Assembly: GCA_963792585.1 (NCBI GenBank)
Contig: CAWBWI010000003.1
Location: forward strand, 736,001-800,000
Length of the DNA stretch: 64,000 bases
Origin: Candidatus Eiseniibacteriota bacterium
GTDB taxonomy: Bacteria; Eisenbacteria; RBG-16-71-46; CAIMUX01; VGJL01
Reading direction: 5' to 3'
Made by a program: the position numbers and the translations under genes. Below are positions 52,189-59,646 of this stretch, one piece after another. Position 1 is the first letter of the stretch. Each line of letters starts with the position of its first letter. Below the pieces are notes generated by a model. That model had not been told where the DNA came from, did no database searches, and saw nothing but the letters and a program-made list of their open reading frames with translations.

Positions 52189-52327
52189 CCGGGCTCGCCT
52201 CCGGGTGTATGCCTTCGCTCGGCGCTGGCTCGCGCGCTAACGGAACGTGTCGCCTTCGGCGCCACGTTCCTGGACCGCGCTCGCGGGCGCGCAGCTCGCT
52301 ACGGCAAACACCCTCCGCTCGCCCGGT
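52189..52327 (+). repeat. Palindromic REP/MITE-like repeat, copy 1
   Basis: Near-identical to the reverse complement of 59366-59505; internal hairpin GGAACGTG...CACGTTCC. Confidence 0.85.
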
Positions 52328-52366: not shown

Positions 52367-52747
52367 TTAGCGCTCCCTTTTCCTCGCGAATTTCACGCCG
52401 GGAAAGCCCTCGAAGTCCGCATCCTGAGTCCACAAGGTCGCCCTGTATTTCTGGGATGTGGCCAGGACAATGCTGTCGGCCATGGGCAGCTTCCGCGCGA
52501 CGCTCAGTTGGGCGGCGGCCATCGCGATCGAAGAGGACAGGTCGACGACCGTCCCCTGGTGCATCAAGGCGGATGCTTGCAGGGCGCCTGCCTGACCCGC
52601 CTGCTGGAGCACACGTCTGAACACCTCGAAGATGCAGAGCGTGGGCACGATCAACCGGCTCACATCCTGAATCGGCGGAGCGAAGAAGGCACCGTTCTTC
52701 CCGTCCGCGAAGTACTCGAGCCAGCCGGAGGAGTCGACCAGATTCAT
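52367..52747 (-). CDS. vapC: PIN-domain toxin (VapC family)
   Basis: VDSSGWLEY, E, ADS and TQDADF acidic PIN motifs. Confidence 0.92.
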   Translation of the reverse strand: MNLVDSSGWLEYFADGKNGAFFAPPIQDVSRLIVPTLCIFEVFRRVLQQAGQAGALQASALMHQGTVVDLSSSIAMAAAQLSVARKLPMADSIVLATSQKYRATLWTQDADFEGFPGVKFARKRER

Positions 52748-52950
52748 ACCCGGTCGTCTTCGCGATCGACGGTCGTGTCCAGCCCCTTGAGGAAGCCGCG
52801 CATCTCTTTGATCGGACGTACTGGAATCAGCTCGATCCGATCCTCGTAGACCATGGCCTGGATCTTCTGCCCGGGTTTGAGCCTGAGGGCCTCCCGGATC
52901 GCCTTCGGGATGACAACCTGGAACTTCGGCGAGATCGTGACGACGTTCAT
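52744..52950 (-). CDS. AbrB/MazE-type antitoxin
   Basis: ISPKFQVVIPK.IRE.L.LKPGQ; ATGA overlap with vapC. Confidence 0.92.
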   Translation of the reverse strand: MNVVTISPKFQVVIPKAIREALRLKPGQKIQAMVYEDRIELIPVRPIKEMRGFLKGLDTTVDREDDRV

Positions 52951-52956
52951 CTCCTC

Positions 52957-53015
52957 CTCCATCGATACAATAATCGTATGACGTATATCGTATCGATGGA
53001 GTCATCGTATGTCAA
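52957..53015 (-). promoter_or_regulatory. TA promoter with overlapping inverted-repeat operator
   Basis: Minus strand TTGACA-17nt-TACGAT, plus a perfect 12-bp inverted repeat CTCCATCGATAC / GTATCGATGGAG. Confidence 0.75.
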
Positions 53016-53030
53016 ACCACCATCGACCGA

Positions 53031-53618
53031 TCACCGGCGCGGCATTCGCTCGACGGTGATCGTGGATTCGGACGATGGGATGCGGGAGTTGACGCGGATC
53101 TCGGCATCCTCGACCTCCTCGATGCGAAGCGGCAGCGGCCAGCCCCCGCCCGGCGGATACAAAGATCGCGGGAAGGCGACGTACACGCTCGTACCCTTCC
53201 AGTCGGGGTAGTTCTTCTCGCACTCCCATCCCGTCGGGATCTTTGCGGGGGTGCGAACGGTGACAAGGCCGCGGTCGGTCTGTCGACCGACCCAGGATTC
53301 GACGGATTGGTACACCTTTCCGTTGTACTTGAGCCCGATGACGGGATCGATCAAGAGTCCCCCGTCCCGCTCCCATCCAATTCCGACGGGAACCCAGACG
53401 AGACTGTCCTGGGTCAGGGCCACCCTTTCGCAAAGGGTGCAGAGGTCCGGATGATCGCGTAGGTAAGCGATCTCGAGGTACATCCGACCAAACACCGATT
53501 CCGTGAGGACAACTTGGACCCGAACATCGTCGATCTGTTTGATGATCCTCTGGATGTCACGCGCATGACTCGTCGGAGCCGCCAAGCTGACGATGAAGAC
53601 CCACAATACCGGCCGCAT
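53031..53618 (-). CDS. Hypothetical secreted protein (195 aa, CxxC)
   Basis: Signal-like MRPVLWVFIVSLAAPTSHA; its ATG lies 1 nt after the stop of the upstream peptide gene. Confidence 0.65.
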   Translation of the reverse strand: MRPVLWVFIVSLAAPTSHARDIQRIIKQIDDVRVQVVLTESVFGRMYLEIAYLRDHPDLCTLCERVALTQDSLVWVPVGIGWERDGGLLIDPVIGLKYNGKVYQSVESWVGRQTDRGLVTVRTPAKIPTGWECEKNYPDWKGTSVYVAFPRSLYPPGGGWPLPLRIEEVEDAEIRVNSRIPSSESTITVERMPRR

Positions 53619-53619
53619 G

Positions 53620-53853
53620 TCAGTTGCATTGTGGATCGGTCGGGTACTGACCACAGTACTCCGTCTGATCCAACAACTCCGTGAAGCAGAGAAAGATGCA
53701 CTGCCAGGGCAAGTCGCAGTCGCCGTCCAGGAGGTCGGCGCAGTGTGTGGGCAGCGTCCGGGCTTCGACCCTATCGACGGTGAACGTAGAGATGGGCAAT
53801 CCCAGCAACATCAAGACCAGCAGGGCCAGACTCAGTGACCTGACGCGGAGCAT
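53620..53853 (-). CDS. Small secreted six-cysteine peptide (77 aa)
   Basis: GGGAGG RBS, hydrophobic leader ending VEA and a six-Cys mature part; lies directly below a sigma54 promoter. Confidence 0.75.
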   Translation of the reverse strand: MLRVRSLSLALLVLMLLGLPISTFTVDRVEARTLPTHCADLLDGDCDLPWQCIFLCFTELLDQTEYCGQYPTDPQCN

Positions 53854-53917
53854 GGCATGGACCTCCCTTGTGGATTGATGACGACCGTTGGTTTCGTGGG
53901 AGGCACTGGGGTGGGTA

Positions 53918-53933
53918 TGCAATGCCCATGCCA
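53918..53933 (-). promoter_or_regulatory. Sigma54 (-24/-12) promoter
   Basis: Minus strand TGGCATGGGCATTGCA (TGGCA-N6-TTGCA), located immediately after the enhancer-binding protein gene. Confidence 0.85.
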
Positions 53934-54011
53934 ATCGCCAGGCCCTGCGACCCAAGGGGTTATGTGGGAGGGTGAAGTGCGGAGACGTCGCTTTTTCGTC
54001 CAGCGACTGGA

Positions 54012-56315
54012 TCAGCTGTCTAGGCGACCCGCCTTCGGGCGAATCCCAAGCTGCTTCAGGACCCGATAGACGTGCCCTCTGGAGACCCCAAGAACGGTGG
54101 CGACATCTGCTACCCTGCCGTCGCACCTTCGAAGAAGCTCGGAGAGTCTTCTTGGATCCTCGAGAACTAGGGATGGGTCACCGATATCGTCGATCAGGCT
54201 ACATGTTGGCGTCGTCTCTTGTGGTGCCCAGTTGTTGACGATCACACCGTCAGAGGTGAGGGCCGCAAGCCGCAGGATCTCCGACTTGAGTTGGCGCACG
54301 TTGCCCGGCCACTGCGCTCTTTCCATGGCCATGATCGACATCTTGCCCAACCCGGCGAATCCGGGACGGATCGTGCTGCGCGCTTCGTCTGTGAACCGAG
54401 CAATCAACTCCTTGATGTCCGAGCGTCTCTCCCGAAGCGGCGGAAGGACCAGCCGCAGACCGGTCAGTCTAAAGTAGAGGTCCCTGCGGAAGCGGTTGCG
54501 TCGCATTCGCTCCTCGAGATCGACGTGCGTTGCGGCGACGATTCTCACCTGAACCCGCTTGGTCTCGTCGCTTCCCAGCGAGCGAACCTCCCCGGAATCG
54601 AGGAATCGCAGCAAGCGCGCCTGGGAGTCTTCCTTGAGTTCGCCGATTTCATCCAGGAATAGCGTCCCGGCCTCTGCCGCGCGCACGAGACCGGTTCTGC
54701 TCGATACGGCACCGGTGTATGCGCCGCGGGTGTGACCAAAGAGCTCCGCATCCAGTAGGTCATGCGGACAGGTGGCGCAATTGAATGCGACCAGGGGACC
54801 TTGCCCCCAACGCCCCATCCTGTGGATCGCTTGAGCGAGTAGTTCCTTTCCGGTGCCGGTTTCGCCTTGGATCAAGACGGGGATGTTCAGCGAGGAGACT
54901 TGGGAGGCATCGCGCATTACGTCCATGAGCCGCCGGCTGCTGCCGAAGAGGCCATGTCGACGAGCAAGTTCTTGAAGGTGACGTCGGTCGAGGGGGCCGG
55001 ACGAGCCACCCGGAGGAGTGGCCGTGGGGACCGGATGGCTCAGGGGTGTCTCGATGACTCCATCGTCAAGTTCCCCCAGAAGATCCAGAACCCGGTCCCG
55101 TTCAAAGGTCTCGCCAAGCTCCTCGAGAATCGCAAGGGCGGAACGGAGCACCTGCTCTCCGGATTCATCCTTGCCAAGGGACCGTAGCGCCTGCCCCTGA
55201 ACCCGAAGCGCCGTCGCATGCTCGTAGCGATCACCATAGCGCTCTGCGCGCGCGCCGGCATCCTTGGCAAGCTGGAGCGCGTCGCTGACATCACCGAGCG
55301 CGAGAGCGACTTCGGCTTGGCGGCGGAGGACCTCGGGCACGATATCCCCGTCAGGGGCGATCTTGTTGGCAATGTTCAAAGCGCGACGCAATGCTGCGCG
55401 GGCGCGAATATAGTTGTGAGATGCCAGGTGAAGTTCGCCGGTGTATTCGAGAGCGATTGCCGTCCGACGAGGAGACGCCTGGCGCCGGCAAAGCCGGAGT
55501 GACTTGGCGAGATCGAGGCGGGCCTCGTCCGGGCGGTCGAGCCGGACGAGAGCGAGGCCGCGGTCGGCTCGAGCGGTGGCTTCAATCGCGGTGTCCCCAA
55601 TCTCAACGGAGAGGCGGACTGCCTCGCGGAGGGATTCCTCCGCGAACGTCAAGTGGCCGCTCCAAAGCCGTTGAAGGCCGAGGTTCAGCGTGGCCTTGAC
55701 GTACTTCCGCATGGTGCCGAGGCTTCGGTATGTGTCTCTTGCCTGCAAGAGGAGACCATCCGCGCGGGACCAGTGCCCCTCGATGCGGTCGAGGAGGGCG
55801 AGGTCCATTAAAGAGTCGGCTACATCCTCGGTCCATCCGAAGCGAGCGGCCTCATGCGCATTTCGCTCTAGTCGTTGCCTCGCCGATACGAGATCTTTCA
55901 GTCTTGCGCTGCATAGTGCCAGTAGCCCGCGTAGCCTGAGGTCATGAATGTTCTCTACTTGCCGCTCGCAGATCGCGGAGAATCGAGTAAGACATGCTTG
56001 CAGCTCTCCTGCTCCGATTAGCATCTGGGCGTCGACTAGCTGCAATTCGGAGTAGAGGTCACGGGCCGTGGGTTCGGCAACGGTCGAGCGCGCAGCTATT
56101 GCCTCCTCGACGCGCCCTTGTTTGTAGAGGCTAATAACCAAGACGATACTCGCCTCAACACCAACGTCTCCGACCTCGCAGCATGCGTTCCTTGCGTGAT
56201 CCTCCGCGTCTCGAAACGCCCCTGATTGGAGGTACGCTCGAGCCAGGCTCATTGCTCCTGGAACAACGAAGCCGGAGGTGCCTGGTCTCGATGCTGTCGT
56301 GTCTGGACGCTCCAT
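54012..56315 (-). CDS. Sigma54-dependent enhancer-binding protein with TPR-like N-terminal domain
   Basis: GETGTGKE, ELFGH..GAYTGA, LFLDEIGE, RRDLYFRL, WPGNVRQL and a Fis-type HTH. The ~420-aa N-terminus is helical repeats, with no receiver, GAF or PAS motifs recognised. Confidence 0.93.
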   Translation of the reverse strand: MERPDTTASRPGTSGFVVPGAMSLARAYLQSGAFRDAEDHARNACCEVGDVGVEASIVLVISLYKQGRVEEAIAARSTVAEPTARDLYSELQLVDAQMLIGAGELQACLTRFSAICERQVENIHDLRLRGLLALCSARLKDLVSARQRLERNAHEAARFGWTEDVADSLMDLALLDRIEGHWSRADGLLLQARDTYRSLGTMRKYVKATLNLGLQRLWSGHLTFAEESLREAVRLSVEIGDTAIEATARADRGLALVRLDRPDEARLDLAKSLRLCRRQASPRRTAIALEYTGELHLASHNYIRARAALRRALNIANKIAPDGDIVPEVLRRQAEVALALGDVSDALQLAKDAGARAERYGDRYEHATALRVQGQALRSLGKDESGEQVLRSALAILEELGETFERDRVLDLLGELDDGVIETPLSHPVPTATPPGGSSGPLDRRHLQELARRHGLFGSSRRLMDVMRDASQVSSLNIPVLIQGETGTGKELLAQAIHRMGRWGQGPLVAFNCATCPHDLLDAELFGHTRGAYTGAVSSRTGLVRAAEAGTLFLDEIGELKEDSQARLLRFLDSGEVRSLGSDETKRVQVRIVAATHVDLEERMRRNRFRRDLYFRLTGLRLVLPPLRERRSDIKELIARFTDEARSTIRPGFAGLGKMSIMAMERAQWPGNVRQLKSEILRLAALTSDGVIVNNWAPQETTPTCSLIDDIGDPSLVLEDPRRLSELLRRCDGRVADVATVLGVSRGHVYRVLKQLGIRPKAGRLDS

Positions 56316-56351
56316 CCTTACTCGTGCCTATCTAGTTACAGGCCCCTATCC

Positions 56352-56726
56352 TCAAGTGCCGAATCGGCTCACAAACAGGAGGTTTCGAATCCACAAGAAC
56401 GACCACGTCGTAGGAGACGAGCAGACGTCTGCAACCGCGCTTGAACCCGCCTTGGACCACGCGGGCAGTGATGGGTATGAGGATCCACTGTCTGGATCTT
56501 CCAATCGCGTAACGAGACTTGGAGAGGTTCTGGCCACAGTTGGCACCTGTGGTGGCACTAGCTCGTTGGACCATTCATCCCCACCACCATCGGTCTCTTC
56601 TCGCAGGACGGGAGGCGCTTCGCGGCCGAACGTCCATGTCGGCAACGAAGCAACAAGGAACAGGAACAGAATGGCCGGGAGGGCAGCGATCAGGGGGGTA
56701 CGGGCCCTGTCCCGGAGCTTTTTCAT
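56352..56726 (-). CDS. Small exported protein / putative peptide precursor (124 aa)
   Basis: GGAGG RBS; basic plus hydrophobic leader; acidic core EETDGGGDEW; Pro/Ser linker; aromatic C-terminus. Confidence 0.65.
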   Translation of the reverse strand: MKKLRDRARTPLIAALPAILFLFLVASLPTWTFGREAPPVLREETDGGGDEWSNELVPPQVPTVARTSPSLVTRLEDPDSGSSYPSLPAWSKAGSSAVADVCSSPTTWSFLWIRNLLFVSRFGT

Positions 56727-56798
56727 AGGGAGGCAACCTCCGTGCGGCCCTGAACTGGGAGCAGGCCACATGGGAACAACCCCATTTCGACGGAACCA

Positions 56799-56827
56799 AA
56801 CATACTGGACCCCCTTCGCTCTGTCAA
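56799..56827 (-). promoter_or_regulatory. Sigma70 promoter of the precursor-bEBP unit
   Basis: Minus strand TTGACA-17nt-TATGTT. Confidence 0.65.
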
Positions 56828-57073: not shown

Positions 57074-57224
57074 TCAGGACCTCCTCGCGACCCCCATCCC
57101 CAGGAGCCTCCCCCGCAACTCATCCACCGTCGGCATCGCCCGCACGAAGTCGAGGATGCGGATCCCGGTGGTGACGGCGCGGACGTGGTTATCAGGTTCG
57201 CCCGCCCGGAGATGGTGCTCGAGC
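57074..57224 (-). pseudogene. Degenerate duplicate of the patatin 3' end
   Basis: Aligns codon-for-codon with 58278-58449 including the stop codon, with a 21-nt in-frame deletion. Confidence 0.85.
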
Positions 57225-58277: not shown

Positions 58278-59153
58278 TCAGGATTCTCTCGCCAGCCCCA
58301 TCTCCACCAGCCTCTCCCGCAACTCCTCCACCGCAGGCATCGCCTGCGCGAAGATCTCCTCCGCCCGGGCGAAGTCGAGGATGCGGATCCCGGTGGTGAG
58401 GGCGCGGACGTGGATATCGGGCTCGCCCGCCCGGAGATGGTGCGCGAGCGCATCGCGCTGCATCATGTCGAATGCCCCGAGGACCGAGTCGATCACGTTG
58501 GGCAGATCGGTTCGGCCGGGCTCGGGCGCGCGGCCGACGTCGACGGCAATCGTCACGTCGCAACGGCCCTTCAGGTGACTGAAGGGCATCACGTTCACCA
58601 GCCCTCCGTCCACGAGCACCCGGCCATCCAGCGCCAACGGCGGGAACACCGCCGGGATTGAGATGCTGGCCCGGATCGCGGCCATGAGCGGCCCGCGATC
58701 GAGCACGACCTCTTCGCCCGTCCAGAAGTCAGTGGCCACCGCGATGAGGGGAATCTCCAGCTCCTCGAAGCGCTCCTTCGTGATACCGCCGAGCAACTGC
58801 CGGAGGAATCGATCCGGTTTGATCATCCCGCCGTGCTTCAGGTCGGGCACGAGCGGGCCGACCCACTTCAGGAAATCCGTCTGCTTCTTGAGCCGCGCGC
58901 GCCGTCCCTCGGCATGCGATATCAGGTGCCGCTCGACCAGATCGTGGATCTGCCTGCCGCTCATGCCGGAGGCGTAGAGCGCGCCGATCAGGGCGCCCAT
59001 GCTGGTCCCTGCGATCACACATGGCTTGAGGCCAAGTTCGTCAAGCAGCTCGAGCACCAGTACGTGCGCCAGCCCGCGCGCCCCGCCCCCGCCCAAGGCG
59101 AGCCCGATTCGAGGCCTGCCGCCTCCCGGTGCGTCTGGCGGTGTCGTTGACAT
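58278..59153 (-). CDS. Patatin-like phospholipase
   Basis: GGGGARG, GTSMG, ASISIP and DGG. Confidence 0.95.
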   Translation of the reverse strand: MSTTPPDAPGGGRPRIGLALGGGGARGLAHVLVLELLDELGLKPCVIAGTSMGALIGALYASGMSGRQIHDLVERHLISHAEGRRARLKKQTDFLKWVGPLVPDLKHGGMIKPDRFLRQLLGGITKERFEELEIPLIAVATDFWTGEEVVLDRGPLMAAIRASISIPAVFPPLALDGRVLVDGGLVNVMPFSHLKGRCDVTIAVDVGRAPEPGRTDLPNVIDSVLGAFDMMQRDALAHHLRAGEPDIHVRALTTGIRILDFARAEEIFAQAMPAVEELRERLVEMGLARES

Positions 59154-59365: not shown

Positions 59366-59599
59366 ACCGGGCGAGCGGAGGGTGTTTGCCGTAGCGAGCT
59401 GCGCGCCCGCGAGCGCGGTCCAGGAACGTGGCGCCGCAGGCGACACGTTCCGATAGCGCGCGAGCCAGCGCCGAGCGGAGGCAAGCACCCGTAGGCGATG
59501 CCCGGTCGACCGAGTGTGGCGCCGCAGGCGACACGTTCCGATAGCGCGCGAGCCAGCGCCGAGCGCAGGCAAGCACGCGCAGGCGAGGCCCGATCGACC
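59366..59599 (-). repeat. Palindromic REP/MITE-like repeat, copy 2 plus partial tandem copy
   Basis: 59366-59505 is the inverted match to 52189-52327, and 59516-59599 repeats about 59428-59511. Confidence 0.85.
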
Positions 59600-59646
59600 G
59601 GCAGGAGAGAAGGAGTGAAGGTGAGGACGCGCGACCCTCGAGCGGC

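Follow-up and report, generated by a model that had tools for sequence, protein, structure and literature searches.

A small, putatively exported protein paired with a TPR-containing sigma54 activator: a candidate peptide-sensing system of Eisenbacteria and Krumholzibacteriota

In the RRNPP(A) systems of Bacillota (Rap-Phr, NprR-NprX, PlcR-PapR, and AimR-AimP), a Sec-type propeptide is encoded next to a cytoplasmic receptor built of tetratricopeptide repeats (TPRs), and the accessible text of PMC10075063 gives this design a five-point signature: a propeptide of 10-100 aa, a Sec signal, a receptor of 250-500 aa, TPRs in that receptor, and direct adjacency of the two. Propeptides with multiple peptides are described in the accessible part of PMC9765709. 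Cytoplasmic peptide-pheromone receptors are reported for Firmicutes, and Proteobacteria and Actinobacteria are reported typically to use small molecules (PMC10075063, same portion). One-component bacterial enhancer-binding proteins (bEBPs) such as NorR, RtcR, NifA, and PspF combine a GAFTGA-type AAA+ domain and a helix-turn-helix (HTH) with an adjacent -24/-12 promoter. Here we analyze a locus that resembles both, located in a 64-kb stretch (the window) of a Candidatus Eiseniibacteriota genome (G000; 84% complete), where a small, putatively exported protein is encoded directly upstream of a TPR-containing sigma54 activator. We lean, with modest confidence, toward the reading that an acidic peptide derived from the small protein is read by the TPR domain of the activator after export and re-import.

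A small protein gene paired with a TPR-sigma54 activator gene

All parts of the cassette lie on the minus strand (Table 1). The original prediction, made from the letters of the window alone, had placed a sigma70 promoter, a small exported protein, a TPR-containing bEBP, a sigma54 promoter about 80 nt beyond it, a six-Cys peptide, and a coupled secreted protein in this order, and all six parts were present where it put them; the -24/-12 consensus, 78 nt past the activator stop, is the sole match in 64 kb (0.03 expected). The activator comprises a TPR region of 22 helices (residues 16-420), an AAA+ domain (457-693), and an HTH (724-755). Pfam matched TPR_12 (1e-11) and Sigma54_activat (PF00158, 4e-60), with HTH_8 below its cut-off (1e-3), and the AAA+ domain carries the Walker motif GETGTGKE, the loop GAYTGA, and the motif FLDEIGE. 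Neither kinase nor receiver families were among its 21 Pfam hits, again as predicted. We class the protein as a bEBP from its GAFTGA-type AAA+ domain, its HTH (below cut-off), the unique -24/-12 site, the rpoN gene of the host, and the enrichment of such sites across the family; G000 also encodes Omp85/BamA-family genes and LpxA. The best NCBIfam matches of the activator were NorR, RtcR, NifA, and PspF, all far below cut-off, and unlike these it has as its input domain a 22-helix TPR solenoid, which is paired with a dedicated small protein of predicted export. The activator of this contig is deposited as 709 aa with a later start, while homologues favor 767 or 746 aa. Several of the ~35 bEBP genes in G000 (C1, C2, and C4) are split across frames, probably through assembly frameshifts.

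Matches to the TPR part were found in 204 of 206 genomes of the Eisenbacteria phylum (E ≤1e-8), although the weak rows of this search may be generic TPR proteins, and a family profile matched 81/81 genomes of the Krumholzibacteriota phylum at 1e-40. One unpublished genome (G072) is included in the phylum tallies given here for the TPR family, the output partner, Opp, and OPT, and no sequence claim uses it. Family members are TPR-AAA-HTH proteins of ~770-900 aa, TPR-GAF-AAA proteins of ~1050 aa (GAF checked in L048), or proteins whose AAA+ domain is degenerate or missing. No receptor match was found in plasmids, and none in viral contigs with a single-protein query that reaches close relatives only.

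Of 536 places with a receptor, 150 were listed, and we analyzed 95 loci down the ranking plus 3 metagenome loci, with 15 duplicates dropped. An open reading frame (ORF) of 70-175 aa with a basic hydrophobic N-terminus, which was a selection criterion, ended just before the receptor in 90 of the 98 loci with Eisenbacteria-type homologues. Among the loci with at least 450 nt upstream, such an ORF was present in 90/94, compared with 49/400 long ORFs of G000 used as a control, and a comparable ORF preceded 29 of 30 Krumholzibacteriota receptors (the best 30 of 178 places). Across both phyla, 119 of 124 testable loci thus showed the pairing. It was missed in L023, L043, L061, L071, and L136, with L043 having a small ORF under a looser rule. 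For the pairing of small ORF and receptor, the synteny check suggested with the original prediction gave a clearly favorable outcome. G000 itself contains a second precursor-receptor pair (C1:1415778-1418900, motif GGDPDDYS), as well as another TPR-bEBP with no small ORF upstream.

The 124-aa protein, encoded 36 nt before the activator gene, begins with a basic, hydrophobic signal (approximately residues 1-34), followed by an acidic motif, a low-complexity linker, and an aromatic C-terminal segment. This layout, with a short spacer after the signal, is common across the family, whose precursors have a median length of 113 aa (≤100 aa in 13/90). Hydrophobicity and homologue patterns point to export, and an AxA-like cleavage site is present in 95 of 119 precursors, a count made with no control run. 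The hydrophobic moment of the aromatic segment exceeds that of shuffled sequences in 66/90 precursors. The segment follows the motif in 94 precursors and precedes it in 18, 17 of them from Krumholzibacteriota, so it appears to be a movable element, one that is likely membrane associating; we know of no RRNPP counterpart. One subclade of Krumholzibacteriota (L130-L133, L135, L138-L140, L143, L145, L150-L153, and L155-L157) has the aromatic segment ahead of a GDADD motif rather than at the end of the protein. A role as a transmembrane anchor was rejected, with transmembrane-level hydrophobicity reached in 6/90 precursors, as was a PEP-CTERM-like or arrest-peptide role, since the clade alignments have no conserved C-terminal motif. 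The exact 124-aa precursor is recorded as a called protein only from another assembly source. In two RNA libraries, contigs of a ~90% identical relative span 28 of 30 bins; this is no proof of transcription and was set aside as RNA support.

A -24/-12 site lay within 450 nt downstream of 34 of the 60 members with a GAFTGA-type loop, compared with 1 of 19 members without that loop and 21 of 600 control ORFs. The promoter is therefore tied to activator competence, and the expectation of a downstream site in homologues was borne out for members with an intact loop. Among the 34 promoters, an enhancer search found no shared spaced palindrome (best, 6/34) and identified no enhancer for the window; GTAACA (12/34 versus 1.9) and TATCAA (14/34 versus 2.5) were enriched, the latter being part of the IHF consensus. 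The sigma70-type site ahead of the precursor is weak on its own, because 3 such sites occur in 7 kb versus 1.5 expected; the precursor of the related genome G016 is also preceded by TTGACA at a comparable distance.

Other genes were seen beside the pairs. In the ~815-aa GDPD clade, the activator and its -24/-12 site are followed by tRNA genes, with four each in L050, L096, and L107 and one partial gene in L070, possibly a sigma54-linked tRNA cluster or an integration site. cysS is found upstream of the pair in L050 and L067, a gene for a winged-helix plus AAA ATPase protein lies past the -24/-12 site in L048 and L062, and ppx/gppA is ahead of the pair in six loci of the ~1050-aa clade.

The acidic motif and its association with the TPR domain

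In each of nine clade alignments, an acidic motif was the main invariant block of the mature part of the precursor, and the motifs (GDPD, GTPFEE, GGDEW, and GDADD) are specific to receptor clades. In the clade of the window, which carries DGGGDEW, G47, D50, and E51 are invariant across 6 close precursors. A motif pattern derived from the first 50 loci matched 37 of 58 later loci (shuffled mean, 2.7; maximum, 9), and GDPD was present in 39/90 precursors versus 0.47 expected from shuffling. Near-identical tandem copies of the motif occur in L012, L014, L015, L018, and L048, and L092 has three copies, one of them C-terminal. Paralogues inside one family bear different motifs, and several pairs with different motifs can occur in a genome.

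When mapped on a quick IQ-TREE tree built from 90 TPR regions, motif class required 14 changes compared with 47 when shuffled. Since gene linkage alone predicts such clustering, a sharper test compared the TPR and AAA+ domains of the same receptors at 53 loci with both domains. Motif similarity followed TPR identity given AAA+ (partial rho, 0.26; 1/500 permutations) and not AAA+ identity given TPR (partial rho, 0.02), in a set in which the script misplaced two motif anchors and related loci are not independent of each other. With the TPR domain, the partial rho of the precursor tail was 0.19 and that of a flanking control window 0.07. Clades without a GAFTGA-type loop or without the whole AAA+ domain (L035-L039, L041-L043, L045, and L046; L049, L069, L074, L081, and L108) have strictly conserved precursor motifs, GTP[FY]EEPE and GDPTADDQPSP, indicating that the pair outlives the sigma54 output.

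Four receptor residues, N211, R283, D324, and E328, are invariant in 53/53 receptors; in the model, each is positioned within the first helix of its TPR repeat or where that helix begins. In TPR proteins, the first helix of each repeat lines the groove. In the window clade, a second Asn pair is replaced and E284 has become R, alongside the shift of the motif from GDPD to GGDE[WF]. The TPR model (pLDDT 96.9) aligned with pheromone-bound Rap over 320 residues (Z 28.3; root mean square deviation [rmsd], 4.6), with NprR at Z 25.6, and with AimR at Z 22.1, with 8-14% identity to RRNPP chains in the structural alignment. This modeled fold fits peptide binding and shows neither RRNPP descent nor function. 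No RRNPP entry was among the 60 PDB sequence matches listed of 205 and 108, and no RRNPP model was among the 25 families listed of 33 and 28 in family searches of the receptor; searches of a representative library and an atlas were dominated by generic TPR repeats and clusters. The best natural PDB sequence matches of the TPR part, among the matches listed, were LGN/Pins and kinesin light chain. Both bind acidic peptides, which they hold by Asn and Arg (accessible part of PMC6214655); both are eukaryotic scaffolds with no transcriptional output and no exported precursor.

Taken together, the small upstream protein is likely a signal precursor. It is predicted to be exported and then cleaved to release a short acidic peptide around GGDEW. 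This peptide would re-enter the cytoplasm, likely through OPT/POT-type permeases, and bind the groove of the TPR sensor of the adjacent activator. Binding would likely switch the AAA+ domain, either on or off, at the -24/-12 promoter. The peptide might pass between cells or might report on the envelope of the cell that makes it. In the window lineage, the output would be the six-Cys secreted peptide and its CxxC partner.

Peptide import and alternative readings of the pair

A number of results weigh against export and re-import of a precursor-derived peptide. Re-import in RRNPP systems runs through Opp, a route that does not appear available here: searches for the Opp ATPase (oligo_HPY) and permease (BPD_transp_1_N) domains gave no match in G000 or other members of its family. 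The ATPase domain was absent from the search hits in 4/4 near-complete family genomes and G000, and across the phylum 77 of 121 high-quality genomes had it. Neither Opp nor OPT was detected in 8/126 genomes at the thresholds used, and no processing peptidase or transporter recurred among 60 neighbor ORFs scanned. Two of the three testable closest relatives (G004 and G017) have no downstream -24/-12 site (the G015 contig ends 52 nt past the activator stop), and a sigma54 site precedes the precursor in 5/69 loci, approximately background, so there is no sign of direct autoinduction (positive feedback). The pre-set motif pattern failed in Krumholzibacteriota (6/30 versus a shuffle maximum of 7), and the motif GD[AGTP]DD, present in 26/29, was defined after that failure. 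Because linked genes share history, the tree and Mantel results overstate coevolution. The structural score for Rap was tied with those for APPBP2 with a degron (Z 28.2) and LGN with a peptide (Z 27.7), and domain III of MalT was also close (Z 27.1; rmsd, 4.2). Finally, the precursor exceeds the 100-aa limit for RRNPP propeptides, as does the family median, and the receptor exceeds the 500-aa limit, its TPR part alone spanning ~405 aa.

With both size limits exceeded, Sec export putative, and the TPR content and the direct adjacency of the genes in agreement with the signature, we did not file the pair as RRNPP; it likely works like one. The resemblance lies in the adjacency of a propeptide, here putatively of Sec type, and a TPR receptor (accessible text of PMC10075063), in multicopy motifs (likewise PMC9765709), and in a comparable TPR superhelix. 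In contrast to RRNPP systems, the host is a diderm with lipopolysaccharide (LPS), the output is a C-terminal AAA+-HTH sigma54 module, the receptors span ~530-1100 aa, and the precursors, of 90-146 aa, lie upstream of the receptor and carry an internal acidic motif and an aromatic helix; Opp was not found in the window family. Thus, of the proposed RRNPP-like one-component sigma54 signaling in a diderm, the pairing, the Rap/NprR-like fold, and the downstream site in members with an intact loop stood, whereas a conserved Cys-rich output did not; the Opp route of RRNPP re-import also found no counterpart.

Since Opp was not found, import would likely proceed via OPT/POT-type permeases. G000 encodes four full-length OPT permeases and one POT, and its two SBP_bac_5 genes have no Walker-A ORF within ~5 kb. 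OPT was found in 5/5 and POT in 4/5 of the close genomes, including G000. Opp or OPT was present in 118/126 genomes, with Opp in 16 of the 24 genomes lacking OPT (compared by hand). Peptide importers are expected in heterotrophs, so their presence shows only that a route exists.

The missing Opp fits a different explanation, which we consider unlikely: that no re-import occurs and the TPR domain binds the motif of unexported or mislocalized precursor, so that the activator reports Sec capacity or the state of the membrane. PspA-PspF control is the model for such a monitor. It would need no importer, it agrees with cotranscription without autoinduction, and the aromatic segment, given its hydrophobic moment, could bind membrane. 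Several pairs per genome with different motifs argue against it, as do the AxA-like sites (the uncontrolled count above); the tandem and C-terminal motif copies better suit released peptides.

Less probable still is a membrane-tethered periplasmic partner whose signal crosses via a transducer or protease cascade, with the TPR domain binding another protein rather than the motif. An acidic peptide would be well accommodated by the invariant Asn and Arg residues, by analogy with the TPR complexes of kinesin light chain (PMC6214655, accessible part). The long mature part does keep a second conserved element, and the tail also tracks the TPR domain; however, no transducer gene recurs beside the pairs, and the C-terminal segment is transmembrane-like in few precursors. 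A reading of the TPR domain as a sensor of a small molecule or protein, like domain III of MalT, and of the small exported protein as a cotranscribed passenger, draws on the MalT match above and on TPR_MalT and AfsR models that match 23-24/24 receptor members, all below their cut-offs, and is very improbable given the pairing across two phyla and its retention, with clade-specific motifs, where AAA+ is dead or missing. MalT and AfsR also fuse a TPR-like sensor to an ATPase regulator; unlike the activators here, they are STAND ATPases, not sigma54 activators, and have no paired precursor.

Local output, surroundings, and implications

Table 1. Cassette features, with positions in the window
Feature	Position	Strand	Remarks
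Candidate sigma70-type promoter, TTGACA-17-TATGTT	56799..56827	-	10/12; for the precursor-receptor operon
124-aa precursor-like ORF	56352..56726	-	GGAGG upstream
Candidate signal motif DGGGDEW, residues 46-52 of the precursor	56571..56591	-	Clade alignment
Aromatic C-terminal segment of the precursor, likely amphipathic, movable module	56355..56408	-	Hydrophobic moment, alignments
767-aa TPR-AAA+-HTH sigma54 activator	54012..56315	-	Pfam, model
-24/-12 sigma54 promoter, consensus TGGCA-N6-TTGCA	53918..53933	-	78 nt past activator stop; similar site in G016 (L031)
77-aa six-Cys signal-peptide protein, local output	53620..53853	-	GGGAGG upstream
195-aa signal-peptide partner, invariant CxxC, no known family, local output	53031..53618	-	Start 1 nt after six-Cys ORF stop

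The original prediction treated the Cys-rich peptide as part of a conserved circuit, which did not hold: the partner was found in 3/206 genomes and the peptide in 3/35, once without the regulator. From sequence comparison, the six-Cys peptide and its partner appear to be a rare local output, with other clades driving other outputs. G016 holds the whole cassette (receptor TPR, 57%; peptide, 48%; partner, 56%), and G004 and G017 have the precursor-receptor pair without the Cys-rich output. In G005 (L124:1115-1857), peptide and partner genes are neighbors and run divergently from an ABC-ATPase-like ORF; the 3.3-kb locus contains neither an activator gene nor a sigma54 site. Contigs of matching size suggest that three partner homologues are linked to three receptor homologues.

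All six Cys residues of the peptide and the CxxC of the partner are invariant among the homologues found. No thioredoxin hit was obtained for the partner by Pfam or PDB sequence search, and its model (pLDDT 59) is mostly beta-strand, with a best Z of 4.9 and no thioredoxin fold listed among the structural matches; its best atlas score, 0.82, is a lead only. A further lead, for the output pair only, is pediocin PedA/PedC, in which PedC is a helper of a disulfide-rich secreted peptide (accessible part of PMC4919988). Here too such a peptide lies beside a secreted CxxC protein, but the partner has no thioredoxin hit and a low-confidence, mostly beta-strand model, and the peptide is acidic. A DGDCD stretch in the peptide, considered as a second ligand, was weakened by SGDCA at that place in G005.

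Immediately upstream of the cassette, two copies of the 3' end of a patatin gene (window 57074-57224 and 58278-58449; 80-92% identity) flank a small HTH gene and a membrane-protein ORF. The cassette is bracketed by inverted repeat arms of 133 nt with 95% identity (52195-52327 and 59366-59600), which lie 7 kb from each other and have tandem copies; GC content between them dips to 0.59-0.63 versus ~0.67 outside. The arms may mark the edge of an insertion or belong to dispersed repeats. An AbrB/MazE-type antitoxin and PIN-domain pair (52367-52962) is accompanied by a sigma70-type site of its own and by an inverted repeat of 21 nt.

Literature searches, with most subscription papers outside their coverage, listed no description of a precursor paired with a TPR-sigma54 activator, and the precursor-receptor family is real, conserved, and undescribed in the literature covered. 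Tentatively, and with more doubt than belief, we extend the re-imported peptide to a near-universal, multichannel cell-to-cell peptide language in Eisenbacteria and Krumholzibacteriota. Each activator clade would have its own acidic peptide, cut from an exported precursor that associates with the membrane and taken up by a route other than Opp, in an independently evolved diderm counterpart of RRNPP, and AAA-dead members would be decoys or protein-level switches. Predictions already on hand are 6-8 residue ligands named for each clade, the receptor residues that are invariant, and a promoter suited to reconstruction in E. coli. If true, sensing of peptides by the TPR domain of a sigma54 activator would give the bEBPs of LPS diderms a new class of input, and orthogonal peptide-gated sigma54 switches would be useful as genetic parts. 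It would also give peptide-pheromone logic a new home, carrying a Gram-positive design into a new type of cell and coupling it to a new output.

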